From: Caldicellulosiruptor naganoensis
GTDB taxonomy: Bacteria > Bacillota > Thermoanaerobacteria > Caldicellulosiruptorales > Caldicellulosiruptoraceae
Direction: 5' to 3'
Assembly: GCF_026914285.1 (NCBI RefSeq)
Contig: NZ_CP113864.1
Span: forward strand, 148,582 to 212,581
DNA: 64,000 nt
The notes beneath the pieces are model-generated. The model saw nothing but the letters and a program-made list of their open reading frames with translations, searched no databases and was not told the origin of the DNA. Below are positions 1-12,500 of the stretch, piece by piece (within the stretch, counting starts at the first letter, position 1; each line of letters begins with the position of its first letter). Made by a program: the position numbers and the translations under genes.

Positions 1-556
1 TAAAATCCTATTGTAATATGTATACCTATTTTTGCTTCTGAATCATTTTTGGGACTTCTCAGCGGCGTAGAGTCTACTATCGCTATACTCATATCAGGTT
101 CTATTTCAGCTATTAATACATCTTTTATATCTTGCATGTATTCTTCTTCTATTTTTCTTGATAACTTTGCAAAATATGAATAGTCCGGACTTTCTTCTAT
201 ACCTACTACTTGCTTAAACTCTGTGTCTTGATTTATTCGATATTCTAATTCTCTGAAACTCTTTATCCCCTTTTTAACTTTATAAACCAAACAAGCTATT
301 ATCTGAAACAGATTAAATTTCCTCGGTCGTCCCCTTCTATTTTGCTTTATCTTCCTCGATAAAACTTCAGTAACCTTTTTATTACAAAAAGCAGCTTTGA
401 AAATTTCTCATTTTGTGATTTAATATTCATGTATATCTTTTCCCCCTTGTGTTTTTTTGTGGTTTTCTCTTAAATTAAAATTATAACACAAGGGGGATTT
501 TTTTCTTTTTTTACTGTGTTTACTCTATATGGTTATTTCTTTTATTCAACAACCCC
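1..556 (-). mobile_element. Partial copy (cut by the window edge) of a roughly 1.1-kb IS5/IS4-like insertion sequence, in inverted orientation relative to the copy at 11373..12474
   Basis: Bases 1-556 are the near-exact reverse complement of about 11376-11931. The match includes the subterminal hairpin cccccttgtgtt...aacacaaggggg and the end motif ttttattcaacaacc. Similarity stops at about 556. Confidence 0.8.
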
Positions 557-885
557 TGTTTAAAAAATTAATATTTAGACTATCATCTTTGTATAAGAAG
601 TTATCTCCTTTATTTTTTCAGCTTAATTCTATTCTCCATTCTTTACTTTCCTTATATCCTGAATTTAGTTATAGTCTACAAACAAAATTATTACAATATT
701 GTTTTTTGCTACATTTACTCTATGTAGCAATCTTTTTATTTAACAATTGGTGTATTTTTCCTATTTCCAAACTTATCATTTTAAAAACACAAGAAAATTT
801 AAGAAATTTTGAGCTATTTAAAGAAAAGTGTATTCTGAGCTCAAAATTTAGTTGAAAATGGTCTAAAAAAAAAAAAAAAACGGGA

Positions 886-915
886 TTGACAGAGTGAAAA
901 TGTATAAGATAAAAT
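886..915 (+). promoter_or_regulatory. Sigma-A-like promoter candidate (TTGACA-N18-TAAAAT) upstream of the bacteriocin ABC exporter, preceded by an A16 tract (865-880)
   Basis: ttgaca at 886-891 and taaaat at 910-915. It lies about 110 bp upstream of the ATG at 1026. Confidence 0.4.
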
Positions 916-1025
916 TTGCATAGAAATTCCAAGAAGAAATTTACAGAAAAAATAGTCCAAGTACAAAACAGACTAAATAAGATAATAAAGAAGGAAACAT
1001 ATTAAAAATCAAGTGGGATGAAGAG

Positions 1026-3230
1026 ATGAGTAAAAGATACTATTGTGTAAAGCAGCATGATATAACCGATTGTGCAGCAGCGAGCATAGCAACAATTTGC
1101 TTGCAATATGGAAAAGAAGTATCGATAGCCAGAATAAGGCAGATAGCAGGGACAGACAGGTTTGGCACCACAGCATATGGAGTTGTAAAAGCGGCAAAAG
1201 AGCTTGGATTTGAAGCAAAAGCAGTCAGGGCAGAAGCAAAAGAAGCAATATTTGAGAAGATACCACTTCCGTGTATAGCACATGTACTGATAGATGGCAA
1301 GCTATTTCATTATGTAGTAATACATGAAATAAAAAAAGAAAGGATAGTAATAGCAGACCCTGCAAAGGGAATAGTTAAGCTAAAGCCAGAAGAGTTTTTT
1401 AAAATATGGACAGGCATTTTGATATTTCTTGTGCCAAATGAGAGGTTCAAGAAAGGTAAGCAAGAGGGAGTTTTGAAGAAGTTTTTTAAACTGCTGGGTT
1501 TGCAGAAGAGCTTGATATTGAATATTTTTGCAGTGTCAGTTGTATATACCTTGCTTGGTATAGCGGCAGCATTTTATTACAAGTTTTTGATGGATGATGT
1601 AATACCAAATCTTTTGAAGAATACACTTCACGTTATAGCAGCAGGTGCGATACTGATTACAATATTCAAGGTGATATTAGGAGCATTCAGGGTAAGGCTT
1701 TTGATACATTTAAGTCAAAGATTAGATATTAAGCTGATGCTGGGGTATTATGAACATGTGATTAAGCTTCCGATGAGTTTTTTTGGTAGCAGGAAGATAG
1801 GGGAGATAATTTCGAGGTTTATGGACGCGTCAAAGATAAGGGATGCGGTATCAGGTGCAACGCTGACGCTAATGATAGACAGCATAATGGCAGTGGTAGG
1901 CGCAATTATTTTATACCTGCAAAATTCCACGCTGTTTTTTATATCGCTTGTGATGGTTTTGTTATATGCAGCAGTAGTGTTTGGATTTAACAGGGCATTG
2001 AGGGAAGCGAACAGGCAGGAGATGGAAGACAATGCAATTTTAACATCGTATTTGGTAGAGTCACTGAATGGGATAGAGGTAGTAAAGGCATTTAATATAG
2101 AAGAGGATGTAAATTTTAAGACTGAGAGCAAGTTTGTAAAGCTTTTGAAAGATGTTTTCAAGGTAGCGAATTTAAACAATTTGCAAAGTAATATAAGCAG
2201 TGCAATAGCAGCGGTAGGAGTTATAGTGATACTGTGGGTAGGTGCAGACAAGGTAATAAATGGGCAGATGAGCATAGGAGAGTTGTTTACGTTCAATGCA
2301 CTGCTTGCATACTTTGTAGACCCGATAAAAAATCTGATAGGATTGCAGCCGATGTTGCAGACGGCGATAGTTGCAGCCGAAAGGCTTAGTGAGATTTTGG
2401 AACTTGAGAGTGAGTTTCAAGGTGATGAAGACAGGAAATTATCACCCAGTTTGAAGGGAGATATAGAGATAGAGGGTTTGAACTTCAGATACGGTACAAG
2501 ACAGCTTGTGCTGAGGGATATAAATCTTAAGATAAGAAGAGGAGAGAAGATAGCGATAGTAGGTGAGAGTGGTTCAGGTAAGACCACGTTAGCAAAATTG
2601 CTTTTAGGATTTTATGATTATGAAAGCGGAGAGATAAGAATAAATGGCTATAACTTAAAGGATATAAACAAGAAGTATTTGAGGGAGAAGATAGCATATA
2701 TATCTCAAGACATTTTCTTGTTCAGTGGGACGATATTTGAGAATCTGGTGCTTGGAAACAGAAATTTAAAAATGGAAGAAGTAATTGAAGTGAGCAAATT
2801 AACAACACTGGACGAGTTTGTAGCAAAACTTCCTTTGAGATACAATACCATGATAGAAGAGAATGGAGCTAATTTGTCAGGCGGGCAGAAACAGCTAATA
2901 GCAATAACCAGGGCACTTTTAAAAAATCCTGAGATAATAATAATGGATGAAGCGACCAGTAACCTTGACTCTGTAACCGAGCAGGCGATAGGAAAGGTAA
3001 TAGAGAAGGTATGTGAGGGGATAACCACTATAATAATAGCGCACAGGCTATCTACGATTTTAAAATGTGACAGGGTTGTGGTAATGCATGAAGGCAGGAT
3101 AGTAGAGGTAGGGACACATGAAGAACTCATGGCAAAGAAAGGATATTATTATAACCTGTGGAGAGAGCAGCTGATGGGACTTGAGCAAAAAGGACTTTTG
3201 GATTCTGTTGGGAGTGCAACATTAAGATGA
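1026..3230 (+). CDS. Bacteriocin/peptide-export ABC transporter (permease plus ATPase) with an N-terminal C39 double-glycine peptidase domain (ComA/LagD type)
   Basis: The N-terminus has QHDITDCAAASIATI (C39 catalytic Cys context) and HYVVIHE...ADP (His/Asp). Six TM segments follow. Walker A is GESGSGKTT, the signature is LSGGQKQ, Walker B is IIIMDEATS. The gene is 734 aa. Confidence 0.9.
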   Translation: MSKRYYCVKQHDITDCAAASIATICLQYGKEVSIARIRQIAGTDRFGTTAYGVVKAAKELGFEAKAVRAEAKEAIFEKIPLPCIAHVLIDGKLFHYVVIHEIKKERIVIADPAKGIVKLKPEEFFKIWTGILIFLVPNERFKKGKQEGVLKKFFKLLGLQKSLILNIFAVSVVYTLLGIAAAFYYKFLMDDVIPNLLKNTLHVIAAGAILITIFKVILGAFRVRLLIHLSQRLDIKLMLGYYEHVIKLPMSFFGSRKIGEIISRFMDASKIRDAVSGATLTLMIDSIMAVVGAIILYLQNSTLFFISLVMVLLYAAVVFGFNRALREANRQEMEDNAILTSYLVESLNGIEVVKAFNIEEDVNFKTESKFVKLLKDVFKVANLNNLQSNISSAIAAVGVIVILWVGADKVINGQMSIGELFTFNALLAYFVDPIKNLIGLQPMLQTAIVAAERLSEILELESEFQGDEDRKLSPSLKGDIEIEGLNFRYGTRQLVLRDINLKIRRGEKIAIVGESGSGKTTLAKLLLGFYDYESGEIRINGYNLKDINKKYLREKIAYISQDIFLFSGTIFENLVLGNRNLKMEEVIEVSKLTTLDEFVAKLPLRYNTMIEENGANLSGGQKQLIAITRALLKNPEIIIMDEATSNLDSVTEQAIGKVIEKVCEGITTIIIAHRLSTILKCDRVVVMHEGRIVEVGTHEELMAKKGYYYNLWREQLMGLEQKGLLDSVGSATLR

Positions 3231-4627
3231 GAGAGGTAATATATGATTTTGGTGAACTTAGAGAAAGCAAGCTTTTGTATGAATCAGAGATTCCAAGGTA
3301 TGGACTTTTTATTACATATATTTTGCTTGCCTTAGTGATAGGACTTGTTTTGTGGAGTGTGGTAGGAAAAATTGATATAAATGTGAAGGTTCAAGGGATA
3401 ATAAGACCCTGGGAAGATGAAGCAAAGGTGATAAGTTATGTTGGAGGGAAGGTAAAAGAGGTTTTTGTAAAAGAAGGTGAATATATAAAGAAAGGTGATA
3501 TTTTATTTAAGATTGATGATGAGGAATATGTGAAGAAGAGGGATTTTTTGGAACAGCAACTTAGCGAATATGAGAAAAAAGTTAATGATTTAAAAGAATT
3601 GAGAAATAGCATAGAAAAAGGAGAAAGCCTCAGGAATAAAAATAATGCATACTATTTGAGGTACTTGAGCTATAGTTATGAGGTAAACAAGCTAAGAAAA
3701 GCTGCAGAAGAAGCAAGAGTGCAAAGAGAATACAGTATAATGGAATTTAAAAAGCAGATGGAGAGTTTGGATGAGAAGATTAAAAATATTAATAGATTTG
3801 AAAGCACGTTAAAAGAAGTAAAGGAAGTTGTAAGCAAAGGCGAGCAAGTTAAGCTAACGAAATACGACATAGGGTATTTGGAATTTATATTGAGTGAAAT
3901 AGAGGCTTACAATCAGCAGGTGAAGACAAAATTGGATGGTAGTAATATACAGAAGAAGATTTTAATATCGAAAATAGATTCAAAACTTGATGAGCAGAGA
4001 GAGTCAAAAAGTGAGATGATTTTGCAGAAACAGAAAATAGAAGGGCAGCTTGATTTGTTAAACATTTCGGGTGATGATACAAAAGAAGAAATTGAAAAGT
4101 ATAAGTTTGAAATGCTACAGCAGATTGATAATGAGATTAGTAATTTAAGCAGTGAAATAAAGAATTTAAAAATCAGTTTAGGTGAAACAGAGAAGTTGAT
4201 AGAAAGCTGTAATATAAGAGCGGAAAAAGATGGATATGTAGAATACAGTGCAAATCTTCTCAATGGAGCGGTGATAAATAGCGGAGCTGAGATTGGCAGA
4301 ATAGTTGGCAGTGGGTCAAGAGGATTTAGGGTTATTGGATACATACCAAACACAAAAAGCAGTGGCATAGAAAGAGGGCAAAGAGCAAAGGTAAAGATAG
4401 CAGGAGCAGATGTGTTGAAAGTATTGGAAGGGAAGGTTGTAAGGGTATCGCAGGATATAAAGGCAATAGGCCAGAGTGGGCAAGGGTTTTATGAGGTTGA
4501 GGTAGAAGTAAAGAAAGTTCCAAAAGGTATTAATTTGAGGGCAGGGCAGGCATGTGAGATGAGCATAGTGGCTAGGCAGGAGCGGTTGATTGAATGGGTA
4601 TTAAAGAAGTTGGGATTGAGGTTTTAA
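3227..4627 (+). CDS. HlyD-family secretion accessory (membrane-fusion) protein for the bacteriocin exporter
   Basis: It has an ATGA overlap with the upstream ABC gene and an N-terminal TM helix (LFITYILLALVIGLVLW). Long coiled-coil segments and a C-terminal beta-barrel-like region are present. The gene is 466 aa. Confidence 0.8.
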   Translation: MREVIYDFGELRESKLLYESEIPRYGLFITYILLALVIGLVLWSVVGKIDINVKVQGIIRPWEDEAKVISYVGGKVKEVFVKEGEYIKKGDILFKIDDEEYVKKRDFLEQQLSEYEKKVNDLKELRNSIEKGESLRNKNNAYYLRYLSYSYEVNKLRKAAEEARVQREYSIMEFKKQMESLDEKIKNINRFESTLKEVKEVVSKGEQVKLTKYDIGYLEFILSEIEAYNQQVKTKLDGSNIQKKILISKIDSKLDEQRESKSEMILQKQKIEGQLDLLNISGDDTKEEIEKYKFEMLQQIDNEISNLSSEIKNLKISLGETEKLIESCNIRAEKDGYVEYSANLLNGAVINSGAEIGRIVGSGSRGFRVIGYIPNTKSSGIERGQRAKVKIAGADVLKVLEGKVVRVSQDIKAIGQSGQGFYEVEVEVKKVPKGINLRAGQACEMSIVARQERLIEWVLKKLGLRF

Positions 4628-4637
4628 GGTGAGGCAA

Positions 4638-4668
4638 CAACCCTTTCATCAGCCGGCTGTGAGGGTTG
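4638..4668 (+). promoter_or_regulatory. GC-rich compound palindrome/hairpin (caaccct-N17-agggttg; loop contains cagccggctg) immediately 3' of the HlyD gene and about 65 nt upstream of precursor peptide 1
   Basis: A 7-bp stem is seen in sequence. There is no following T-tract, so it is not a canonical terminator. A paralogous structure lies at 5513-5540. Confidence 0.45.
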
Positions 4669-4733
4669 GGATATAGCTAAAATAAAAAATCATATTAAGC
4701 ATTCGTAAAATATATAAAGGAAGGAGGAGAAAT

Positions 4734-4994
4734 ATGGTAACTGTAATGCCAATGAATGAATTTATAAAATTGACAGAAGAGGACTTGATGATGATTGATG
4801 GTGGAGTATCTGGATGGGGAATTGCTTGTGGTGTTTTTACAATTGTAGCTGGTGCTTGTGCTGTTGTAGGTGGTGTTGCTGCTATGTTTGCCCCCGAGCC
4901 AGTTGCAACAAAAGTTGTAGGCTATTCAGCAATTGTTGGAGGAATTGCAACAATTGGTGCAGGTATTACAGGAATTATGTGGGCTTTAGAATAA
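4734..4994 (+). CDS. Class II bacteriocin precursor 1 (double-glycine leader; glycine-rich hydrophobic core peptide)
   Basis: The RBS is ggaggag. The leader ...MNEFIKLTEEDLMMIDGG is followed by a 62-aa Gly/Ala/Val-rich core, VSGWGIACGVFTIVAGACAVVGG... It lies directly downstream of the C39-ABC and HlyD genes. Confidence 0.75.
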   Translation: MVTVMPMNEFIKLTEEDLMMIDGGVSGWGIACGVFTIVAGACAVVGGVAAMFAPEPVATKVVGYSAIVGGIATIGAGITGIMWALE

Positions 4995-5180
4995 AGAAGC
5001 TTAGTTTAGTATTGAGTATTTGTTTGCAAATAATATGCAAATATTCAACTTGCACTTTTTGTGATATCAATTTATGGGCTTTTTGACACAAAGATGCTTT
5101 TTTAATAGTTTTTATAATGTTTTTATTTTTACTAATAAATTTAGCACTTTGTATTTTGTACTTTAGGCAAAGCGAAAGGA

Positions 5181-5387
5181 ATGATTATAAATATGAAAAG
5201 GAAAATAGGTAAGTTAATAATAGTGATAAGTGGTTTTGTTATTTCGATCTGTGGTTTACTAAATCTTATGATACTGGCAAATCCCACAAAAAAAGTTTTA
5301 TTTATTATAGGTCCCCTCTTGATAATATGTGGAATGATTGCAATAAAATTTGGATTTAATTTACTAAAAGGTAATAAGAATAGTTAA
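5181..5387 (+). CDS. Small two-TM membrane protein (candidate bacteriocin immunity protein)
   Basis: This is a 68-aa ORF with two hydrophobic helices, positioned between precursor genes. There is no homology evidence. Confidence 0.35.
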   Translation: MIINMKRKIGKLIIVISGFVISICGLLNLMILANPTKKVLFIIGPLLIICGMIAIKFGFNLLKGNKNS

Positions 5388-5462
5388 TTTTATTTAATGA
5401 AAATATAGAAAATATATACGTTGAATTTTTTAGTCAGAAAATGGAAAGTTATTGAGACACTT

Positions 5463-5540
5463 GATTGAATGGATATTAGAGAAATTGGGATTGAGATTAT
5501 AAGGATAGGCAACAACCTCTTTTGCGGCCGCAGGAGGTTG
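5463..5540 (+). repeat. Duplicated copy of the HlyD 3'-end/intergenic junction (paralog of 4588-4668) ending in a GC-rich hairpin (caacctc-N14-gaggttg; loop contains gcggccgc)
   Basis: gattgaatggatattagagaaattgggattgagattataaggataggcaacaacctc versus gattgaatgggtattaaagaagttgggattgaggttttaaggtgaggcaacaaccc are about 80% identical. Confidence 0.7.
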
Positions 5541-5577
5541 GGGTAGATAAAAAACAAAAAGAAAGGGGGAATCAAAA

Positions 5578-5784
5578 ATGGTAAATGAAAGTATTATTAA
5601 AAATGGATATTTTGTTGAACTTCAAAATAGTGAAATGGAAATTGTAAATGGTGGCTGGATTAACACATTTATAAATGTTGCGAAATGGACTTTTAAAGTT
5701 ATTGAGTATCTTGGCATAGTAGATGCATTACGAGAGTTTGGAAGAGGTTTTATTGATGGTTGGAATGAAGCAACACGCAGATGA
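5578..5784 (+). CDS. Class II bacteriocin precursor 2 (double-glycine leader)
   Basis: The RBS is aaaggggg. The leader MVNESIIKNGYFVELQNSEMEIVNGG is followed by a 42-aa Trp-rich amphipathic core, WINTFINVAKWTFKVIEYLG... Confidence 0.7.
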   Translation: MVNESIIKNGYFVELQNSEMEIVNGGWINTFINVAKWTFKVIEYLGIVDALREFGRGFIDGWNEATRR

Positions 5785-5818
5785 GTAATTTTTTAATTAT
5801 TCAAACTAAAAGAAGGGG

Positions 5819-6031
5819 GTGAATTTTGTGTATAAATTTATACAACTTGATGAAAGTGAAGCTTTAATAATAAATGGTGGAGAAACTCTTTTTTATGACA
5901 TTGGTAAAGCTCTAGGATATGGATTGGGTAAATTATGGAATTTCATTAGTAATCTCCCGTCATATTTTATTCAAAATCCACCTGTTGGTGGTCCGCCAAA
6001 TATCTATAGTCGCTATATATACTTTATTTAG
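5819..6031 (+). CDS. Class II bacteriocin precursor 3 (double-glycine leader; GTG start, possibly at 5828)
   Basis: The RBS is aagggggtg. The leader (M)YKFIQLDESEALIINGG is followed by a core ETLFYDIGKALGYGLGKLWNF... It is co-oriented with precursor 2 and 34 nt downstream of it. Confidence 0.6.
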   Translation: MNFVYKFIQLDESEALIINGGETLFYDIGKALGYGLGKLWNFISNLPSYFIQNPPVGGPPNIYSRYIYFI

Positions 6032-6050
6032 ATTAACAAGTATCAAGGAG

Positions 6051-6098
6051 CGACACCTTTCCGCAGAAGACGGAAAGGTGTCGTGGTTATTTAAAATT
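6051..6098 (+). terminator. Rho-independent terminator after precursor 3
   Basis: A perfect 13-bp stem, cgacacctttccg/cggaaaggtgtcg, is followed by a T-rich run. Confidence 0.8.
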
Positions 6099-6124
6099 TT
6101 ACATTTTAAGAATGGAGGATATTA

Positions 6125-6853
6125 ATGGAATACAACAAAAGCAGAGTTATAGAAGGTAAAAGCATTTTAAAATATATAGGTATTTTTTTATTCTCTAATA
6201 TAATATTACCAGGCATATTTTTTGCAATTATCTTTGGCAATGATATTCCATATATAGCTGTAATAGGTAGTATATGGAGCACTACTTTATTTTTTATAGT
6301 ATTTTGCAAAAGGGAGATAGAGACTTTATTTAATAATTCTATTTCAAAAATCAAAAGCAAACTGAATACTAAAAAGATATTATTTATTCTAATATTTGGT
6401 TTTTTGATAAATGTTATATTAAGTATTTTTGGAAGCATAATGATGTCTCAAGAAATTTCTGGCAAAAATAAAGTTTCTAATGATTTAATAAACGACATAG
6501 CTATGTATATGAAGGGCAACAATTATTTTACAAATGCAATAATGATGTTAGCAATAGTAATATCTCTTGGAATATTAGGGCCTATTATTGAAGAGGTTGT
6601 TTTTAGAGGACTTATTCTTCAAGCGCTGATGAATAAAATGAACATTGTAATGGCTATATTAATTGAGTCATTACTGTTTAGTATATTTCATTCGAATTTA
6701 TTTCAAGTTATTATTACGTTTATGTTTGGAATACTATTATCAATTGTTTGTATTCGTTTTGAGTCGATAATTGCTTCTATTATTTTACATATAGGTTTTA
6801 ATATGTCTTTTTTACTTAAAATATTATGTACAATTATTTTAAGTAAAATCTAA
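6125..6853 (+). CDS. CPBP-family (CAAX protease/Abi) intramembrane metalloprotease, bacteriocin-immunity type
   Basis: Motifs EEVVFRGL, FSIFH and HIGFN are present in a multi-TM context. Confidence 0.8.
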   Translation: MEYNKSRVIEGKSILKYIGIFLFSNIILPGIFFAIIFGNDIPYIAVIGSIWSTTLFFIVFCKREIETLFNNSISKIKSKLNTKKILFILIFGFLINVILSIFGSIMMSQEISGKNKVSNDLINDIAMYMKGNNYFTNAIMMLAIVISLGILGPIIEEVVFRGLILQALMNKMNIVMAILIESLLFSIFHSNLFQVIITFMFGILLSIVCIRFESIIASIILHIGFNMSFLLKILCTIILSKI

Positions 6854-7154
6854 AATATTTGAACTACAATGCATGGCTTTTTTTAGTTCTAAAGACTATT
6901 ACTCCAAAATTGTAATAGTAATGTATTTTCAATTATTTTTACACATTCATGTTGACAATTTTATAGTTTCTTGATGATAGCAAACTAAATCAAACAAAAT
7001 TTTTTGATATGGTAAATGAGAAAAAGTACATCAATAGTATGTAGCTATACAGTAGGCAAGTATGTGTGAAGGGTATAACAGAGAAAATTAATTATTATAG
7101 TAAAATAAATTTTTACAAACATACGAATGCTGGATTGTAAATGTTTTAAAGAGT

Positions 7155-7217
7155 CTGATAATGCTTATCTTAAGAATTTTTGCAAAAGGCTATAACTGCA
7201 ATATAGCCGTTTGCAAA
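7155..7217. repeat. Roughly 60-bp direct repeat (second copy 8997-9062) flanking the IS4-like element; it contains an imperfect palindrome ttgcaaaaggctata-N7-tatagccgtttgcaa
   Basis: gataatgctNatNtt...tttNtgcaaaaggctataactgcaata is present in both copies. The second copy forms the 5'UTR of the ABC-2 permease gene. Confidence 0.6.
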
Positions 7218-7458
7218 ATGAATAGATGTACAAACCATAAAATAGGAATACAGGAATAAAAGTCAAGAGGCTGCATAGGTAAATTGTGCTATTTACACAC
7301 AATAACAACATTATCAGCAACGTATGCAACTATAAATGTATTACCAAATAATTCAAAAGCCAAAAAAGGCAAAATTATATCAAACCCTTTAAAAAGGGTT
7401 TTTAGTGTGGGCAATTTGTAAAGGATTAAAAATGCATTTTTTAGAGTTAAGAGAAATC

Positions 7459-8901
7459 TTAGGCAATAAGTTTTTTAAGTTTTTGAAGTTTTTTGTAAGA
7501 GATATTTTGGTGATGTTTTAGTATGGCATAAGAGAGAATAAAGAGTAAAAGCATACAAATAGCAGAGAGTAAGAAGTCAGAAAAAAGTGAAATATGGTCA
7601 TATGAGAAAATGGTATCATGACCGAGAAAAGACTTTAGATTAAAAATAGTTTGCTCGATAGTAACTCTGGATTTGTAAAGTTGATAAAACTGGTCAGAAT
7701 TTCTATCGATACCTGGATAATACCGCAGGTTGGCATCCGGGTATGTATAGAACATCCTACCTGACTTAGAAGTAGTACAAGGATGTGGGCAAGTGCAAAA
7801 GCGTTTATTGTCTTTAATCTGAGAGCAAGGGCAGCGCCATTTAATTCTTGGGGAGCGATTTTTACCATTACAAAGACCTTCGTAGATAAAAGGTTTATTT
7901 AGTTTATTACAGAAGGGTATACCGTTTTGTGAGATAGTGATGTTAGGGTCAGAGGTAGGAGTATATGAGGTTTGGTTAGAATTTCTGGGGTTAATAGGGA
8001 TTATGACTTTAGAGAAATTGAAATCTTTGATGAGAGAAGAATAGACCATGTAAGAGTCAAGAGCACTGTCGGCGATAAAGGTTGAAAACTGATTGGATTG
8101 GAAATTGTGGTTTAGGTTAATCAAAGCGGGAATAAGAGCTTTTGAATCAGAGATAGCTTTAGAAAAAGCAGGGTCTTGAGGGTCATCAGAAGAAGGACAG
8201 AAGGCAGGAGTGATTACAAGAGGTAAACCAAATCCATTAGTGATGATAGCGAATTTGTATCCATAGCAGAAATGACCATTAGCGAACATACGAGTGATAT
8301 AAGGTGAAGCAGAAGCAGATTTGGGGAGGTTTGAGTATGTGAGATAATACACAGCAGAGGAAGTAAGGTTAGGGTTTTGAGATTTAGTTTTTCTGAGCAT
8401 AGATTGGATGAACTTAGGGTTATTTTCTTTGAGCATAGGAACTAAGGCGGTTGTGTCGAATATGATGCAAGAAGCAAGATCAGGGTTTATTTCAAGTGCA
8501 ATATTTTGAGCATATTTTGCGAGGTTATAAAAGACGTTTTCGATTTCGGAGCAAAAGATTTTTCTAAATCTTGAGAATGTAGAGATAGAGGGTATAGTAT
8601 CGAAGTTGCAGAAAGATTTAAGCTGGTAAGAGTTGAGCAAGACAGCACGGAGTTGAGTTAAGGTAGAGAATTTGAAGATTTTTTGGATGAAGAAAGCACA
8701 TAACATAGATTGCAAAGAGAAGCATCTATGTTTACCGAAGTATTTATAGTAGGCTTTAAAGAAGGATTGAGGGATGAAGCTTTTGATATTGATGTATTTG
8801 TTGAAGAAGCCAAGAAGGTTATGAGGGTTATTGAGAGCGAGGTTTTTAACGTCCTCATAAAGTTCTAAAAAAGAGAGTTGTTTATTATGATTTTTAAACA
8901 T
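7459..8901 (-). CDS. Intact DDE transposase of an IS4/IS1182-like insertion sequence
   Basis: This is a 480-aa ORF with DDE-region signatures (IIFDTTAL, FIADSALDS, YQLYKSRVTIEQTIFNLKS). The element ends were not resolved. Confidence 0.65.
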   Translation of the reverse strand: MFKNHNKQLSFLELYEDVKNLALNNPHNLLGFFNKYINIKSFIPQSFFKAYYKYFGKHRCFSLQSMLCAFFIQKIFKFSTLTQLRAVLLNSYQLKSFCNFDTIPSISTFSRFRKIFCSEIENVFYNLAKYAQNIALEINPDLASCIIFDTTALVPMLKENNPKFIQSMLRKTKSQNPNLTSSAVYYLTYSNLPKSASASPYITRMFANGHFCYGYKFAIITNGFGLPLVITPAFCPSSDDPQDPAFSKAISDSKALIPALINLNHNFQSNQFSTFIADSALDSYMVYSSLIKDFNFSKVIIPINPRNSNQTSYTPTSDPNITISQNGIPFCNKLNKPFIYEGLCNGKNRSPRIKWRCPCSQIKDNKRFCTCPHPCTTSKSGRMFYTYPDANLRYYPGIDRNSDQFYQLYKSRVTIEQTIFNLKSFLGHDTIFSYDHISLFSDFLLSAICMLLLFILSYAILKHHQNISYKKLQKLKKLIA

Positions 8902-9072
8902 TTTATCCTCCTCTTCATAGAAAATATGTTTTATACAGTTATATTTTACACTATCTATGAGGAGGAAGGAATACCTTTTTGAAGATTGTATAAAGCTTGA
9001 TAATGCTCATTTTGAGCGTTTCTGCAAAAGGCTAAAAAGGCTATAACTGCAATAGCAAAGGAGGTAGCACAA

Positions 9073-10242
9073 TTGTTATTGTATGCTGAAATCCAAAAAA
9101 TTCTCAAAAGCAAAAAATTTTTTATTGCCTTAATAATCACAATTGGTTTCAATCTTTTTTATTGCTGGTTTGTGTATAATTATGAGAACAAAAGTGTTGA
9201 ATCTACAAAACAATATATTGCAGATACAGAAAGACAGATAAAGGAATTGCAGCAGAAATTAAAAAAAGAAAAAGACGACATGAAGAAAAGATTATATCAG
9301 GAACAAATTAATGAATTGAATAGAATTGTTCAAAAGGAAAAATTAAAAATGCAATATGCTTCTAATCCTAAGAAGGAAATAGAAGAAAGAGCCCGATATT
9401 ACAAGATGAGGTATGAAATTTCTCAGAAAGCTGGTGACTATAAAGAGCTTGAAATTAATAAGGTAAATTATCAGATTTTAAATGAAAATATAAAGAGGAA
9501 AAAATATTATAGTGTTGGTGGACAATTTGATGGATGGACTTATTTACTTAGTCAATCGTACGGAATAGCATTTTTTATAATTATTGTTTTAGCTTTGCTT
9601 ATTGGAAGTGGTATAGTTTCAGATGAATATAAGGAAGGGACAGCGAAGATTTTAAAAACTATGCCTGTGAAAAGAAGTAATATTATTTTAAGCAAATTTA
9701 TTGCAACTGTTTTGACTGTGTCCGCATTGGTCATTGGTATACAAATTGTATTTTTCATAGTTTTAAATCTTATAACAGATTCTTTTAAATACTATGATGT
9801 ATATTGTAATTGGATTTCGAGATACAAGGTGATAGGTTTTAAAGTGTATCCTGTTTTAGATAACGTGAAGTTATTAACTTTACTTGAAAGCAGCATATTA
9901 CAGTTTATGACAGAAATAGTAATTATTTTAGCTATATCTGGAATTATTGTATTTTTCTCTTCTATATTTGAAAACGGAGTATTTACGAGTATTAGTTTTA
10001 TTGCAATAATAGTAATTATAAGTATACTTCGTCAAAAGATGCTTATGATAAAAACACCAGTATTGAAGCTATTGTCATTGATATTTCCTTGGGAACTATC
10101 TGTTGTATACACGAATTATTTGCCAAATGAGTTGGATTGGATTTATGCTTCAACCTATGTTGTTATAGGGTTGAATTTACTGCTAACAATTATCTTTGTA
10201 TTGGGTTCTATAGAAATATTTAAACATAAAGAAAAAGTATAA
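9073..10242 (+). CDS. ABC-2 type transporter permease (N-terminal TM, coiled-coil ectodomain, C-terminal multi-TM bundle)
   Basis: It is 389 aa with a TTG start after the RBS aaaggagg. The membrane topology and its pairing with the downstream ATPase support the call. Confidence 0.6.
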   Translation: MLLYAEIQKILKSKKFFIALIITIGFNLFYCWFVYNYENKSVESTKQYIADTERQIKELQQKLKKEKDDMKKRLYQEQINELNRIVQKEKLKMQYASNPKKEIEERARYYKMRYEISQKAGDYKELEINKVNYQILNENIKRKKYYSVGGQFDGWTYLLSQSYGIAFFIIIVLALLIGSGIVSDEYKEGTAKILKTMPVKRSNIILSKFIATVLTVSALVIGIQIVFFIVLNLITDSFKYYDVYCNWISRYKVIGFKVYPVLDNVKLLTLLESSILQFMTEIVIILAISGIIVFFSSIFENGVFTSISFIAIIVIISILRQKMLMIKTPVLKLLSLIFPWELSVVYTNYLPNELDWIYASTYVVIGLNLLLTIIFVLGSIEIFKHKEKV

Positions 10243-10290
10243 TATAGTGTAAAAATAAAATTTGGTAATATCTAAAGGAGGCATAAAAAA

Positions 10291-11238
10291 TTGGCTGAAA
10301 ATGGATTAGAAAAAGTGATAAAAGTAAACGATGTGAACAAAAGAATAGGGAACTCTCAAATTCTAAAAGAAATAAACTTTTCAATAGAAAAAGGAGAGAT
10401 TGTTGGTCTTGTAGGACCAAATGGTGCTGGCAAAAGCACATTAATGAAAATACTGGCAGGTTTATGGTTACCAAAACCAAAAGGGAAATGTTATATTTTG
10501 GGATGTGATGTAACTAAGGAACAAGAAAGAATAGAGGTTTTAAGAAGAGCGTCATTTTTTATCGAAACACCAGCACTGTATCTTAAACTTAGTGGTTATG
10601 ATAATATAGAATTGTATGCTAAACTAAAATATGGGAGTGCCTTTAACGTTAAAGATGAGGTTAATAGGTTAGCACCATTTTTTGAATTAGAAAATAAGAT
10701 ATTAAAAAGAAAGGCAAAAACATATTCATTGGGAACAAAGCAAAAGGTTAGTTTACTTCAAATGTTTATTGGCAACCCTGAGGTGTTGATATTGGATGAA
10801 CCTTTTAATGGATTGGATCCAACCACCACAATTAAAGTTAAAGAACTCTTAAAAACACGATGGAGAGAAAATAACATAACCGTTTTAATCTCATCACATA
10901 TATTAAGTGATATAGAGGAGTTATGTTCAAGAATTATTTTTATCAAAAATGGTTCAATAATATTAGACAAAAATAAAGAAGAATTGTTAAAAAGAAATAC
11001 AGTAGTGATTTTTCATTTTACTGAAAAGGAGCATGTTGATATAGCGTGCAGGTTAATAAAAGAAAAATTACCATATATAACTGTAGAAACTCAGTTTAAT
11101 AACTCTATAAAAGTTCATAATCTAAATTCTCATTATGATGTTTTAGATATATTACAGAATGAGGGTATAAAAGTTCGAGACATAGAAGAACAAAAAATGA
11201 GTTTAGTAGATTTTTACAAACAACTTTATTTACAATAA
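10291..11238 (+). CDS. ABC transporter ATP-binding protein (partner of the 9073 permease; putative bacteriocin immunity/export)
   Basis: Walker A is GPNGAGKST, the signature is LGTKQKV, Walker B is LILDEPFNGLD. Confidence 0.85.
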   Translation: MAENGLEKVIKVNDVNKRIGNSQILKEINFSIEKGEIVGLVGPNGAGKSTLMKILAGLWLPKPKGKCYILGCDVTKEQERIEVLRRASFFIETPALYLKLSGYDNIELYAKLKYGSAFNVKDEVNRLAPFFELENKILKRKAKTYSLGTKQKVSLLQMFIGNPEVLILDEPFNGLDPTTTIKVKELLKTRWRENNITVLISSHILSDIEELCSRIIFIKNGSIILDKNKEELLKRNTVVIFHFTEKEHVDIACRLIKEKLPYITVETQFNNSIKVHNLNSHYDVLDILQNEGIKVRDIEEQKMSLVDFYKQLYLQ

Positions 11239-11372
11239 TCAAGAACTTTTTAAATTAAAAGATATACCTATTAGAGATAAAAATAGTTACAGAAGAAATA
11301 GGAGTTACTCTATAGTTTGCTAAGATTAGCGAACAATTACAAGGAAGTATAACAAAATATATTTTAAAATAG

Positions 11373-12474
11373 AGATTGTTGAATAAAAGAAATAACCATA
11401 TAGAGTAAACATAGAAAAAAAAGAAAAAATCCCCCTTGTGTTATAATTTTAATTTAAGAGAAAAACACAAAAAAACACAAGGGGGAAAAGATATACATGA
11501 ATATTAAATCACAAAATGAGAAATTTTCAAAGCTGCTTTTTGTAATAAAAAGGTTACTGAAGTTTTATCGAGGAAGATAAAGCAAAATAGAAGGGGACGA
11601 CCGAGGAAATTTAATCTGTTTCAGATAATAGCTTGTTTGGTTTATAAAGTTAAAAAGGGGATAAAGAGTTTCAGAGAATTAGAATATCGAATAAATCAAA
11701 ACAAAGAGTTTAAGCAAGTAGTAGGTATAGAAGAAAGTCCGGACTATTCATATTTTGCAAAGTTATCAAGAAAAATAGAAGAAGAATACATGCAAGATAT
11801 AAAAGATGTATTAATAGCTGAAATAGAACCTGATATGAGTATAGTGATAGTAGACTCTACGCCGCTTAGAAGTGCCAAAAATGATTCAGAAGCAAAAATA
11901 GGTATACATATTACAATAGGATTTTACAGGGGATACAAATTACATTTTTTGTGTACAGGTAAAGAAGAAGTAATACCACTTTTCTGGATTTTACAGAGGC
12001 AAATGAATAGACGTGCGACAAGAAGAGCTTTTGTATAGGGCATGGGGCTCTTTGGCTGTGAGATTGTATTAGCAGATGCGGGATACGATTGTAGTAGAAT
12101 AGTTTAATATAGCAAATGAGCTTAAAGTTAAATTTGTTGCCGGGATAAACAAAAGAAACATGAAAGATATAAACAATGTTAGCAATAGTTTTAAAAGCAA
12201 GAACATAAGATTTTTAGAAACTGAAGAGGGTAAAAAGTTATACAGGCAGAGAACAAAGATTGAAAGACTACTTAGCAAATTAAAAGGTGAATATAATCTT
12301 GAGAATGTAAGGCTCAAGGGATTTAGAAATTATAAAAGGTATATTGATTGGATACTAACCTGTTTGAGCAACTTCTTAGAAAGTTAGAAGGTAAAAAGTT
12401 TTCTTTCGCTTATGAATGGAATCAATAATTTATGTTTGTTTTATGCATTGCTGGTAATATTTTTTATTCAACAA
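11373..12474 (+). mobile_element. Roughly 1.1-kb IS5/IS4-like insertion sequence with terminal inverted repeats (ggttgttgaataaaa / ttttattcaacaacc)
   Basis: TIRs at 11373-11390 and 12458-12474. An internal subterminal hairpin is present. There is an inverted partial second copy at 1-556. Confidence 0.75.
11637..12387 (+). pseudogene. Degenerate DDE transposase of the IS (in-frame TAG at 12036, 1-nt frameshift near 12102)
   Basis: The N-terminal part spans 11637-12038. The LADAGYD (DDE) segment after the TAG is in the same frame. The C-terminal part, ...YRQRTKIERLLSKLKGEYNLE..., lies in the +1 frame. Confidence 0.7.
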
Positions 12475-12500
12475 CCTAATTATATAAAACATAAAAATAT

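Follow-up and report, generated by a model that had tools for sequence, protein, structure and literature searches.

A predicted class II bacteriocin locus with one exporter and three double-glycine-leader peptides in Caldicellulosiruptor naganoensis

The exporter PCAT1, for which a structure is available (PDB 4RY2), and the lactococcin G-type two-peptide bacteriocins are the described systems with which the locus analyzed here is compared. PCAT1 residue G135 contacts leader position −4, and the LahT-type pairing has V/I at −4 (PMC6959990); the PCAT leader consensus used here, L(−12)..E/D(−8)..hydrophobic(−7)..hydrophobic(−4)..GG, is from the same source. The GxxxG glycines are reported to form the peptide-peptide contact (PMC12765074). 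A literature search found no paper with expression, secretion, or killing data for any such Caldicellulosiruptor locus.

The window, i.e., the whole 64-kb stretch of DNA that was analyzed, comes from Caldicellulosiruptor naganoensis, an extreme thermophile and hot-spring cellulose degrader; the original prediction had guessed a thermophilic, cellulolytic host. All of the open reading frames named there (exporter, HlyD protein, three peptides, small TM protein, and CPBP) are present on the + strand. Judged by sequence, positions 1026 to 6853 represent a genuine, if fairly ordinary, locus for class II (unmodified, double-glycine-leader) bacteriocins. The earlier description of the system as uncharacterized stands for experimental work; NCBI, however, already auto-annotates the locus as bacteriocin related and labels pepA and pepB class IIb bacteriocins. 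Overlooked previously was the extension of the system past 6853, to the end of an ABC-2 transporter at 11238 and to flanking IS copies.

Exporter, accessory protein, and peptide leaders

The first gene (1026..3230, + strand) encodes a 734-aa PCAT exporter with a C39 peptidase, a 6-TM ABC domain, and a nucleotide-binding domain (TIGR01193, PF03412, PF00664, and PF00005). The protein scored 711 bits against TIGR01193 (cutoff, 524) and aligned end to end with PCAT1 (806 bits), with Q10, C16, H95, and D111 matching PCAT1 Q15, C21, H99, and D115. Absence of the catalytic Cys/His had been named as an outcome that would overturn the bacteriocin assignment; in the alignment both are present (C16/H95, equivalent to PCAT1 C21/H99). 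The position of PCAT1 G135 is occupied by Ile131, which fits a LahT-type pairing with V/I at leader position −4. The dN/dS of the exporter gene relative to that of the syntenic locus L009 was 0.08. The next gene (3227..4627, + strand) encodes a 466-aa LcnD/HlyD-type accessory (membrane fusion) protein (PF13437 and PF13533) with one N-terminal TM segment at about residues 22 to 53. It scored 105 bits against TIGR01000 (bacteriocin_acc), which is under the cutoff, and PF25887 (HB_LcnD) is recorded for an identical protein.

When a GG-leader regular expression was run on the 64-kb window in six frames, only pepA, pepB, and pepC matched. A strong, correctly spaced Shine-Dalgarno sequence precedes each of the three genes, and all three leaders fit the PCAT consensus; the confinement of the pattern to three open reading frames with these features indicates more than chance. 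Family models, alignment with the solved homologue, and comparative genomics agree with the original view that a C39-peptidase ABC exporter and an HlyD partner export double-glycine class II peptides. In the proposed export step, which homology to PCAT1 strongly supports, the amphipathic helix (L-12, E/D-8, L/M/A-7, and I/V-4) of each 18- to 26-residue leader would dock on the C39 domain of a dimeric PCAT, and Cys16/His95/Asp111 would cleave the precursors after Gly-Gly. ATP binding and hydrolysis would then drive the cargo through the transmembrane cavity, with the LcnD/HlyD-type accessory protein helping.

ComA is another homologue of the exporter (559 bits), the leader type is identical, and related leaders gave weak matches to ComC models, as might be expected if the peptides were signaling pheromones (ComC/BlpC type) that leave through a ComA-like exporter rather than antimicrobials. 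We regard this as highly improbable. No histidine kinase or response regulator was found within 30 kb, in agreement with the original prediction, or in the orthologous loci examined; the cores, at 42 to 62 residues, greatly exceed pheromones in length; they are accompanied by immunity-type genes (CPBP, a two-TM protein, and an ABC-2 transporter); and the pepB core is homologous to a bacteriocin family.

Beta-like and alpha-like peptides beside a CPBP/Abi protease

Three separate, very different peptides had been predicted. The composition described for each core holds (pepA, 19% Gly and 19% Ala; pepB, 3 Trp; pepC, 6 Tyr, 6 Gly, and 5 Pro), but pepB and pepC are read here as beta-like and alpha-like halves of one bacteriocin. 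pepB (5578..5784, + strand; 68 aa) consists of a 26-aa leader (...SEMEIVNGG) and a 42-aa core (5,004 Da) with GxxxG at core residues 31 to 35. Against NF038034, the lactococcin G-beta/enterocin 1071B model (cutoff, 37 bits), it scored 27.5 bits as the full peptide and 21.2 bits as the core alone (E = 2.5e-4). The pepB orthologue in L009 scored 24.2 bits with the lactococcin G-beta/enterocin 1071B model, and the C. bescii orthologue, which lies at the same locus position and shares 46% identity with pepB over 28 residues (BLASTP E = 3e-10), passed the curated cutoff with 44.1 bits. BLASTP of pepB against LcnG-beta itself gave no alignment.

pepC (5828..6031, + strand) has an 18-aa leader (...SEALIINGG) and a core with GxxxGxxxG at residues 8 to 16 and a Pro/Tyr-rich tail. 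Its GG leader, as predicted, is real; the core, given previously as 50 aa, is likely 49 aa (5,618 Da) in a 67-aa precursor, since the GTG at 5819 overlaps the Shine-Dalgarno sequence AAGGGGG (5812 to 5819) and the likely start is therefore the GTG at 5828. Gene callers likewise gave 67 aa. The peptide scored 26.6 bits against NF038035 (cutoff, 37), and its segment ETLFYDIGKALG can be aligned with ESVFYKIGEGVG from a bona fide alpha peptide; this alpha-side similarity spans just 11 to 12 residues and is lost when the leader is taken off. Orthologues of pepC are found in L009 and C. saccharolyticus.

Profile-profile comparison with hhalign gave E values of 4.9e-5 for beta against beta (23 columns) and 1.3e-3 to 2.4e-4 for alpha against alpha, versus 0.086 to 0.55 for the beta-alpha cross-comparisons. 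For both peptides, the GxxxG glycines, and no other positions, make up the invariant alignment columns. In L045, a 58%-identical PCAT has next to it a bona fide beta-then-alpha pair with scores of 48.3 and 59.3 bits. The arrangement of adjacent beta-like and alpha-like genes with a CPBP gene after them was found in the window, in L009, in two alleles of C. bescii, and in C. saccharolyticus. Unlike the lactococcin G peptides, each with a charge of +4, the pepB and pepC cores are nearly neutral (net charge, +1) and are without cationic tails.

That pepB and pepC each kill alone, so that the locus would hold three independent one-peptide class II bacteriocins served by one exporter, seems to us quite unlikely. 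Each peptide does have its own leader and Shine-Dalgarno sequence, pepB and pepC fall under the curated cutoffs of the two-peptide models, and an IS lies between their orthologues in L009; however, the beta-like and alpha-like genes are neighbors in every locus that has either, their GxxxG motifs align with experimentally essential ones, the profile matches are reciprocal and specific, and one immunity-type gene, not one per peptide, follows the pair. As their sequences suggest, pepB and pepC most likely constitute a single class IIb bacteriocin, a distant relative of lactococcin G/enterocin 1071.

The gene after the pair (6125..6853, + strand) encodes a 242-aa CPBP/Abi (Rce1-like) intramembrane protease (PF02517, 66.9 bits) in which three of three motifs are intact (EEVVFR at 156 to 161, FSIFH at 185 to 189, and HIGFN at 222 to 226). 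It is the probable pepB/pepC immunity protein: the window, L009, L099, L100, and L101 all have a CPBP gene 3' of the peptide pair. Its occurrence in L003, a pepA locus without pepB/pepC, makes this assignment of its specificity tentative. Family models and comparative genomics support both immunity candidates put forward earlier, the CPBP/Abi protease and the small TM protein described below.

From the sequence relationship and gene order, we infer that pepB and pepC would act jointly, with pepB G31xxxG35 and pepC G8xxxG12 packing the helices against each other to give a pair that penetrates membranes. This pair may, by analogy to lactococcin G and enterocin C, dock on a membrane protein receptor such as UppP/BacA and would permeabilize related Gram-positive cells, while the CPBP/Abi protease would protect the producer. 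Further downstream lie an ABC-2 permease (9073..10242, + strand; PF12679), whose synteny with the locus extends to L009, C. saccharolyticus, and C. kronotskyensis (dN/dS, 0.20), and its ABC ATPase partner (10291..11238, + strand; PF00005, 93.5 bits); synteny with L009 stops at 11249. This transporter would probably add accessory self-protection.

A hydrophobic hairpin peptide and its two-TM neighbor

pepA (4734..4994, + strand; 86 aa), preceded by a GGAGG Shine-Dalgarno sequence, has a 24-aa leader (...EEDLMMIDGG) and a 62-aa hydrophobic core (5,910 Da; net charge, −1; GRAVY, 1.40). It scored 22.5 bits against TIGR03949 (cutoff, 21.5). The AF2 model (pLDDT, 76.8) comprises helices at 7 to 51 and 57 to 85, a predicted helical hairpin with a PEP turn. 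An exhaustive search returned 52 cluster representatives, mostly 75- to 105-aa GG-leader peptides; pepA is a member of this small, uncharacterized family of helical-hairpin peptides. Three of the matches are RHS proteins (TIGR03696, 70 to 75 bits) with the hairpin at the extreme C terminus, the position reserved for toxin domains, and an RHS C terminus shares 52% identity with the pepA core (E = 2e-13). Each of the three RHS genes is followed within 13 to 27 nt by a 58- to 78-aa two-TM gene.

A comparable gene, immA (5193..5387, + strand), follows pepA and encodes a basic protein with two hydrophobic TM segments, most likely of 64 aa from the ATG at 5193 (alternative, 5181). It is co-conserved with a pepA homologue in L003 to L008 (62.8 bits), and pepA and immA form a conserved two-gene cassette, a point that had been overlooked. 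The dN/dS values of 0.28 (pepA core) and 0.23 (immA) indicate that both are under purifying selection. Small two-TM genes also lie 3' of distant pepA relatives and of RHS C-terminal genes, and the similarity of immA to these is marginal at best. immA is the probable pepA immunity protein.

An alternative is that pepA is no toxin and instead is a secreted or membrane-inserted hydrophobic peptide that serves some other purpose, as may the PCAT1 cargo CtA (we found no function stated for CtA in the PCAT1 papers), and that immA is an unrelated small membrane protein. An anionic to neutral, extremely hydrophobic peptide is unusual for a secreted bacteriocin, which counts against the toxin reading; related Clostridia PCAT loci carry other long Gly/Ala-rich hydrophobic cargos (e.g., L030); and a structure search with pepA gave nothing significant (best E, 0.2), with no significant match to any known toxin. 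Nevertheless, we consider this alternative unlikely given the RHS C-terminal module with its two-TM follower, the maintenance of the pepA-immA pair by selection, and the other peptide/TM pair at the same site in L009, typical behavior of a toxin-immunity cassette. In the toxin reading, suggested by the connection to RHS proteins and by the conserved pairing of the two genes, the pepA hairpin would insert into target membranes on its own and immA would neutralize it.

Expression and history of the locus

The best site of a promoter scan (11/12 matches), TTGACA-18-TAAAAT after an A16 tract (886..915, + strand), lies ~110 nt upstream of the exporter in a region (785 to 1026) almost invariant in L009 and is a putative promoter. 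A conserved GC-rich hairpin of allelic type 1 (4633..4669, + strand) lies directly 3' of the HlyD stop; the A-rich sequence after it indicates that it is not a canonical terminator. All of the Caldicellulosiruptor loci that were examined have a hairpin at this post-HlyD position; it takes two allelic forms, between which the stem changes are compensatory. A second copy, of type 2 (5508..5541, + strand), lies directly upstream of pepB and is almost identical to the one directly 3' of HlyD in C. saccharolyticus and C. bescii DSM 6725. Between pepC and CPBP is a terminator/attenuator-like hairpin with a 14-bp stem (6050..6084, + strand), whose L009 equivalent differs in sequence. Expression would depend on a single sigma-70-type promoter close to consensus, with conserved hairpins where the cargo segments join and no dedicated quorum-sensing kinase/regulator within 30 kb.

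Also upstream of pepB is a remnant copy of the HlyD 3' end, comprising its final ~42 nt (5461..5502, + strand), which reads LIEWILEKLGLRL* and is 87% identical to window positions 4586 to 4646. L009, otherwise 82 to 89% identical, carries another peptide and TM gene in place of the pepA-immA segment. These sequences point to a pepA-immA cassette added between HlyD and pepB, with the HlyD 3' remnant as the apparent insertion scar.

IS elements lie around and inside the locus, and decay is possible. Two degenerate IS5-like copies (left, 1..566, − strand, an inner part with the rest upstream of the window; right, 11362..12489, + strand), 97.7 to 97.9% identical and inverted, bracket a ~10.8-kb island. 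In the right copy, the transposase open reading frames are broken (133 aa and 75 aa), and two have weak DDE matches (PF13751 and PF01609). An IS1182-like (DUF772/DDE) transposase (7459..8901, − strand) separates the CPBP and ABC-2 genes; it is absent from this site in L009, where a related IS lies between the pepB and pepC orthologues, and the C. saccharolyticus HlyD gene is split by a transposase. Such observations would suit a locus that is silent and in decay and is passively carried along between the IS copies. We find that decidedly unlikely: every gene in the window has its full length, the same as that of its orthologues, dN/dS is 0.08 to 0.33 for the large genes, the catalytic and CPBP motifs are intact, as are the promoter and the Shine-Dalgarno sequences, and the internal IS is intergenic.

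The explanation that we favor, and consider probable as a whole, is one export machine with two toxin/immunity modules (pepA/immA and pepB/pepC/CPBP). The three peptide genes would then most likely yield two predicted toxins, a lactococcin G-like two-peptide bacteriocin and a separate hydrophobic hairpin. At least nine named Caldicellulosiruptor taxa carry the exporter locus, in which the cargo cassettes can be swapped; of these cassettes, we propose that pepB/pepC/CPBP is the ancestral, genus-wide cargo.

Exporter, accessory protein, and leader peptides

All of the open reading frames (ORFs) that the original prediction listed between positions 1026 and 6853 were found on the forward strand. 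A peptidase-containing ABC transporter (PCAT; 734 aa, 1026-3230) overlaps by four bases the gene for an HlyD-type protein (466 aa, 3227-4627). The peptide gene pepA follows (86 aa, 4734-4994), then immA, encoding a small membrane protein (5181/5193-5387; the start is most likely 5193, giving 64 aa), the peptide genes pepB (68 aa, 5578-5784) and pepC (67 to 70 aa, ending at 6031), and a gene for an Rce1-like/CPBP protein (242 aa, 6125-6853). GGAGG-type ribosome-binding sites were read in the DNA 7 to 9 nt ahead of the pepA, pepB, and CPBP starts. For pepC, GTG 5819 falls within the Shine-Dalgarno sequence of the gene itself, and GTG 5828 is therefore most likely the real start, which yields a 67-aa product made up of 18 leader and 49 core residues; two gene callers also picked the 67-aa product. 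The core sizes and compositions first described held for the peptides, except that the pepC core has 49 residues, not 50. For cleavage after GG, the predicted masses of the mature peptides are 5910.0 Da (pepA), 5003.7 Da (pepB), and 5618.4 Da (pepC). The proposal of a thermophilic, cellulolytic, Clostridia-like host was borne out by identical proteins on record from Caldicellulosiruptor naganoensis (GCA_000955735.1, contig LACN01000003.1); Caldicellulosiruptor grows at about 70°C or above.

The exporter was examined by family models and by alignment. It scored 711.3 bits against TIGR01193 (peptide cleavage/export ABC transporters), above the curated cutoff of 523.85, and is built from C39 (PF03412, 131.9 bits), ABC_membrane (PF00664, 175.2 bits), and ABC_tran (PF00005, 120.4 bits) domains. 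It aligned end to end with PCAT1 of Clostridium (Acetivibrio) thermocellum (806 bits), and Q10, C16, H95, and D111 aligned with PCAT1 Q15, C21, H99, and D115. The Cys and His, plus the Asp and the oxyanion Gln, separate PCATs from the inactive C39-like domains of HlyB-type transporters; in the PCAT1-CtA cryo-EM structure, the catalytic C21 and H99 contact the Gly-Gly (PMC6959990). A missing Cys/His pair in the N-terminal domain had been named as grounds for rejecting the system; because C16 and H95 align with the catalytic PCAT1 residues, that objection does not apply. By family score, architecture, and predicted catalytic residues, the exporter qualifies as a PCAT. The accessory gene is of the LcnD/HlyD type, with one N-terminal transmembrane (TM) segment.

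The likeness to PCAT1-CtA (PDB 4RY2 and 6V9Z) extends from the shared architecture and conserved Gln/Cys/His/Asp residues to the leader-binding Ala50 (PCAT1 A55), to the pepA leader (24 residues, the same length as that of CtA) and its ∼60-residue hydrophobic cargo, and to the host, likewise a thermophilic cellulolytic member of the Bacillota. Unlike in PCAT1, Ile131 replaces Gly135 at the contact for leader position −4, translational coupling links the exporter to the LcnD/HlyD accessory gene, and the C. naganoensis locus holds three cargos plus immunity genes. PCAT1 G135 packs on the substrate Met at −4, and a LahT-type arrangement has been linked to a small beta-branched −4 residue (PMC6959990); Ile131 is of the LahT type, and the −4 residues of the pepA, pepB, and pepC leaders are I, V, and I. 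None of the three peptides showed similarity to any deposited chain in a search of PDB sequences, and the idea that pepA is a CtA homologue was therefore dropped. The PCAT1 literature found assigns no function to CtA.

PCAT substrate leaders have the consensus L(−12)xxxE(−8)L(−7)xxxxG(−2)G(−1) (PMC6959990), and class II precursors were defined here by an N-terminal leader of 15 to 30 residues fitting it. All three leaders fit, with L−12, D−8, L−7, I−4, and GG in pepA; L−12, E−8, M−7, V−4, and GG in pepB; and L−12, E−8, A−7, I−4, and GG in pepC. When all six frames of the 64-kb window were scanned with the GG-leader pattern, only these three genes matched.

The exporter is widespread in the genus. 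At 90% identity, its cluster comprises 63 proteins drawn from at least nine named Caldicellulosiruptor taxa (C. bescii, C. obsidiansis, C. kronotskyensis, C. acetigenus, C. morganii, C. saccharolyticus, C. changbaiensis, C. owensensis, and strain F32). In these genomes, one to several small genes for GG-leader peptides come after the exporter and HlyD genes, and CPBP and/or ABC-2 transporter genes come next. A scan of genome contigs with the exporter, the source of comparison loci L045, L017, L030, and L071, gave a best match of 62% identity in Ruminococcus; it returned no Caldicellulosiruptor despite the 90% cluster, so that its negative is uninformative.

In the NCBI annotation, pepA and pepB appear as "class IIb bacteriocin, lactobin A/cerein 7B family," pepC and immA as "hypothetical," and the exporter as "peptidase domain-containing ABC transporter." The scores of pepA (22.5 bits, residues 12 to 49) and pepB (24.0 bits, residues 12 to 30 only) against TIGR03949 (lactobin A/cerein 7B) do exceed its cutoff of 21.5, but most of the match lies in the leader, with a few Gly-rich residues of the core. 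Membership therefore says little about the cores, and the lactobin/cerein name is imprecise: unlike lactobin A/cerein 7B, the pepA core belongs to a PEP-turn hairpin family and the pepB core resembles lactococcin G-beta, as described below.

pepB and pepC as a putative two-peptide bacteriocin

Of the HMM searches suggested with the original prediction, the C39 model matched the exporter, while PF10439 (Bacteriocin_IIc) and the lactococcin-like Pfam models matched none of pepA, pepB, and pepC at an E value of ≤0.1. The NCBIfam models were more informative. pepB scored 27.5 bits against NF038034 (lactococcin G-beta/enterocin 1071B) and pepC, with its leader, 26.5 to 26.6 bits against NF038035 (lactococcin G-alpha/enterocin 1071A), each below the curated cutoff of 37, and neither peptide matched the other's model. 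After removal of the leader, the pepB core still matched the beta model (21.2 bits; E = 2.5e-4), as did its orthologue from a hot-spring metagenome (24.2 bits), and the pepC core gave no match to the alpha model. In C. bescii DSM 6725, the first peptide, which occupies the equivalent place in the locus, scored 44.1 bits, above the beta cutoff of 37; over 28 residues, this pepB orthologue shares 46% identity with the pepB core (E = 3e-10). Clear orthologues of both genes lie adjacent in C. saccharolyticus. In an uncultured Eubacteriales bacterium (locus L045), a PCAT 58% identical to the window exporter is accompanied by a bona fide pair, whose beta gene (48.3 bits) likewise precedes the alpha gene (59.3 bits); the L045 alpha peptide begins ESVFYKIGEGVG, and the pepC counterpart is ETLFYDIGKALG.

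The peptides were then compared by residue and by profile, using as known sequences the lactococcin G peptides as printed in PMC13447968 and the L045 pair. The only invariant columns were pepB F28, G31, and G35 in the beta alignment (A8) and pepC G8, G12, and Y13 in the alpha alignment (A9). pepB G31xxxG35, within an AYEFxKGFxxG segment, corresponds to G18xxxG22 of the known beta peptides, and pepC G8xxxG12 corresponds to G7xxxG11 of LcnG-alpha and G8xxxG12 of EntC1. In a model of enterocin C with BacA, the alpha and beta GxxxG motifs are essential and make direct helix-helix contact (PMC12765074). Profile-profile comparison (hhalign) gave an E value of 4.9e-5 over 23 columns for beta versus beta and 1.3e-3 to 2.4e-4 over 11 to 12 columns for alpha versus alpha, against 0.086 to 0.55 for the alpha/beta cross-comparisons; the alignments were shallow, and the E values are those of single comparisons. 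The relationship was visible to profile methods only, and BLASTP of the pepB core against LcnG-beta gave no alignment. AlphaFold2 rendered pepB as one long helix (pLDDT, 70), which informs on helical propensity only.

The genes are arranged as a pair: pepB and pepC are separated by 43 nt and followed by a hairpin and then by a single immunity-type gene, that for CPBP, and four other Caldicellulosiruptor loci have the same pepB-pepC-CPBP arrangement. In class IIb bacteriocins, by functional definition, both peptides are needed, in about equimolar amounts, for optimal activity. Taken together, the model scores, motifs, and gene order give good support to pepB as a predicted divergent member of the lactococcin G-beta lineage; pepC is moderately supported as its alpha-type partner, because the alpha-side similarity is short. 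The two look like one two-peptide bacteriocin. UppP/BacA may be proposed as the receptor, purely by analogy.

Like lactococcin G, lactococcin Q, enterocin 1071, and enterocin C, the pair is encoded by two adjacent GG-leader genes, and it shares with the lactococcin G family the (Y/R)EFx(K/R)GFxxG segment of pepB, including the beta GxxxG, and the E(S/T)xFxxIGxxxG segment of pepC, including the alpha G8xxxG12. Unlike the prototypes of that family, pepB is extended by 13 residues at its N terminus, the beta gene comes before the alpha gene, a Pro/Tyr-rich tail ends pepC, and the host grows at about 70°C or above. Each core has a net charge of +1, without a cationic C-terminal tail, whereas the lactococcin G peptides carry +4 each. 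The neighboring immunity-type gene encodes a CPBP protease rather than a LagC-type protein.

CPBP/Abi proteins were recognized by PF02517 together with the motifs EExxxR, FxxxH, and HxxxN/D. The window protein scored 66.9 bits and has EEVVFR at 156, FSIFH at 185, and HIGFN at 222. The three intact motifs and its recurrent position after the peptide pair are consistent with the earlier proposal that it serves in immunity; on position and conservation, CPBP is a candidate immunity protein of pepB/pepC. For class II loci, immunity proteins of the Abi/CPBP kind (PlnI, PlnLR, and SkkI, for example) were reportedly described by Kjos et al. (2010, J Bacteriol), and SilX, a CAAX protease, is also said to be discussed in the literature. 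CPBP resembles the PlnI/PlnLR/SkkI-type Abi proteins in being polytopic and Rce1-like, with the three motifs, directly downstream of a peptide pair, but it has no sequence-specific assignment to any characterized immunity protein.

A word-indexed homologue search returned only one to three relatives per peptide, which understates the families; the pepB/pepC relatives in C. bescii and C. saccharolyticus surfaced only through exporter cluster members and their contexts. A scan of metagenome contigs with the pepB alignment returned only the known contig, with patterns that were all leader derived.

pepA, immA, and a C-terminal module of RHS proteins

When 1.84 billion representative proteins were searched exhaustively by profile, 52 relatives of pepA were retrieved at an E value of ≤1e-3. 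Nearly all are peptides of 75 to 105 residues with GG leaders, and the family core has two Gly/Ala-rich hydrophobic stretches joined by a linker, ...PEP(T/V)xxTK.... One distant relative scored 17.5 bits against PF10439, below its cutoff. AlphaFold modeled the pepA precursor as a helical hairpin with its turn at APEPV (pLDDT, 76.8). A Foldseek search of the PDB with this model gave nothing significant; the top nonsignificant matches were hairpins of alpha-pore-forming toxins, which we do not count as evidence.

The small TM protein had been put forward as a second immunity candidate, and conservation favors this. In contigs of subsurface and other metagenomes, a relative 67% identical to pepA is directly followed by an immA homologue (62.8 bits), and the two adjoin another PCAT/HlyD/CPBP set. 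Both window genes are under purifying selection (dN/dS of 0.28 for pepA and 0.23 for immA).

Three of the 52 family hits (P0026, P0048, and P0049) are not small peptides but fragments of RHS proteins. They match the TIGR03696 RHS core with 70 to 75 bits (cutoff, 32.5) and carry a pepA-like hairpin at the extreme C terminus, where the module homologous to the pepA core occupies the last ∼57 residues. Over 58 residues, one of these C termini shares 52% identity with the pepA core (E = 2e-13 with composition adjustment). In polymorphic toxins, this C-terminal position is occupied by the toxin domain (PMC3482391). On all three RHS contigs, a gene of 58 to 78 residues with two hydrophobic segments lies 13 to 27 nt downstream; distant peptide-type relatives of pepA are likewise trailed by two-TM genes of 61 to 63 residues.

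The RHS link provides independent, though indirect, support and suggests that the pepA core may be a membrane-acting toxin and immA its immunity protein. We infer that pepA and immA form a separate putative toxin-immunity cassette. As in RHS polymorphic toxins, the pepA core is homologous to a C-terminal module, and an immA-like two-TM gene follows; unlike in those toxins, pepA, itself not an RHS protein, is a free-standing GG-leader peptide with predicted PCAT export and no RHS shell. The sole two-TM pore-type module in the polymorphic-toxin survey, Tox-WTIP, is proteobacterial, with RxxR and W-TIP motifs (PMC3482391); the pepA module differs from it in both domain and motifs.

Other genes were seen near members of this family. 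A conserved soluble protein of 137 to 157 aa (...YNVNV...IDIYIGV.PNIL; a faint DUF5085 match) accompanies pepA-family genes in three unrelated loci (L003, 9380-9853; L104, 4335-4808; L106, 1146-1559) and is absent from the window. L003, the metagenomic locus with a pepA homologue, also has several more small GG-leader or Gly-rich ORFs (2524-3683 and 3782-9107), one of them a C-terminal pepA-like fragment ending GIMWALE, and C39-peptidase gene fragments interrupted by group II intron reverse-transcriptase genes.

History, expression, and significance of the locus

The locus was compared with its syntenic counterpart L009-L014, from Great Boiling Spring samples at 77°C and assigned to C. owensensis per UniRef. 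Identity to L009 is 89% over the promoter, exporter, and HlyD gene (781-4682), 85% over pepB (5508-5795), 82% over pepC and CPBP (5808-7203), and 86.5% over ABC-2 permease and ATPase genes (8994-11249). The pepA-immA segment (4683-5507) has no match in L009, where another 86-aa Gly-rich peptide and an 80-aa TM protein take its place. Just ahead of pepB lies a 42-nt stretch left over from the 3' end of the HlyD gene (87% identity to 4586-4646).

A GC-rich hairpin (GGCAACAACC...GGTTGG) follows the HlyD stop (4633-4669), with a copy upstream of pepB (5508-5541). In every Caldicellulosiruptor locus examined, including L009, L099, L100, L101, and L102, it comes immediately behind the HlyD stop, and it exists as two alleles, which differ by compensatory changes in the stem and by the GC palindrome at the tip. 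Because A-rich sequence comes next, the hairpin is not a canonical terminator. An Rfam scan of 1-12600 found nothing relevant, and the conserved hairpins thus belong to no known RNA family. The "type 2" hairpin runs straight into the beta-like gene in C. saccharolyticus and C. bescii DSM 6725, which argues that the ancestral order is HlyD-hairpin-pepB-pepC-CPBP and that pepA-immA was added later in the window, apparently by recombination at this junction. The post-HlyD hairpin coincides with the cassette-exchange boundary.

The island (about 567-11361) is bracketed by two inverted copies, 97.7 to 97.9% identical, of a degenerate IS5-like element whose transposase ORFs are broken, one at 1-566 and continuing upstream (3004-4136 of L001, a record that also covers DNA upstream of position 1) and the other at 11362-12489. 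The copies frame the ∼10.8-kb bacteriocin island like a composite transposon, and synteny with L009 stops within about 200 bp of each. An IS1182-like element is intergenic, between the CPBP and ABC-2 genes; since the ∼40-bp sequences flanking it are only about 80% alike, no target-site duplication is claimed. All coding genes of the island are intact, with dN/dS values of 0.08 to 0.33 for the large ones.

Several observations concern the surroundings. A 923-bp direct repeat (98.2% identical; L001 2096-3018, equal to window −1474 to −552, and window 22570-23492) carries the 3' part of an S8 subtilase gene and brackets a ∼24-kb segment containing the bacteriocin island, a radical-SAM gene, and two ABC half-transporter genes, which suggests an insertion or duplication on a larger scale. 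About 1.4 kb upstream of position 1, adjoining an S8 peptidase fragment, a 59-aa ORF on the minus strand (L001 2009-2188) has a hydrophobic, Gly/Ala-rich C-terminal half (…AIALPWALGLLESLLYAILGVAGIIVVGGATYYLAET) and could be another bacteriocin-like peptide. A RecD2-type helicase apparently lies in two ORFs about 250 nt apart, an OB/HHH N-terminal part (25717-26340) and an AAA/SH3/UvrD_C part (26594-27940); the split could be a disruption or a frameshift. In C. saccharolyticus (L101; CP000679.1, 11202-13919), the HlyD-type gene is split by a Transposase_mut insertion, and that strain is probably unable to export pepB/pepC-type peptides though it keeps immunity-type genes.

The original prediction saw no kinase, response regulator, or inducer-peptide gene, and our searches agree: no histidine kinase or response regulator occurs among the large ORFs of window positions 1 to 30 kb, no pheromone-sized GG peptide occurs within 30 kb, and neither was found in the orthologous loci. 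The best promoter-like site in 12.6 kb is TTGACA-18-TAAAAT (886-915), with an A16 tract upstream, and the 240 nt around it are nearly invariant in L009. A hairpin with a 14-bp stem (6050-6084) follows pepC. In L009, genes for an ECF sigma factor, a zf-HC2 anti-sigma factor, and an ABC-2 transporter (4389-4892 and 3234-4382, minus strand) diverge from the exporter promoter; the sigma/anti-sigma genes are a candidate regulator, lost to the IS in the C. naganoensis copy. Expression may be constitutive, or may read through from one promoter with hairpins at the cargo junctions.

Full-text literature searches returned nothing on this locus or on class II peptides of Caldicellulosiruptor, a genus that appeared only in RiPP-mining papers (lanthipeptides, sactipeptides, and circularin-like peptides). 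The description of the peptides as uncharacterized stands in that respect, with the qualification that NCBI already labels pepA, pepB, and the exporter. The system type is standard (PCAT, accessory protein, GG-leader peptides, and immunity genes), and current understanding is not overturned by a textbook arrangement that automatic annotation had flagged. Judged from sequence comparison, two features appear modestly novel: a near-neutral, extended lactococcin-G-like pair in an extreme thermophile and a pepA hairpin family common to RHS toxins.

A wider reading is quite conceivable, if short of probable. The pepA core would be a previously undescribed portable two-helix PEP-turn membrane-toxin module, used either as a PCAT-exported GG-leader bacteriocin or as an RHS C-terminal warhead and always with a small two-TM immunity protein, and Caldicellulosiruptor would have a genus-wide hypervariable locus that swaps such modules and near-neutral lactococcin-G-like pairs by recombination at the conserved post-HlyD hairpin. 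If this is true, these would be peptide toxins working at 70°C or above.

If active, the peptides would represent class II bacteriocins of an organism that grows near 70 to 75°C, and such small unmodified peptides should be intrinsically heat stable. An active natural toxin/immunity pair could also serve for selection or counterselection in Caldicellulosiruptor, a genus engineered for biomass conversion. The predicted pepB/pepC pair would extend the lactococcin G family far outside the lactic acid bacteria, and a near-neutral variant without cationic tails bears on the parts played by charge and by GxxxG packing and receptor docking in the mechanism. Finally, the link between pepA and RHS proteins suggests that one membrane-toxin module may be common to two delivery routes.
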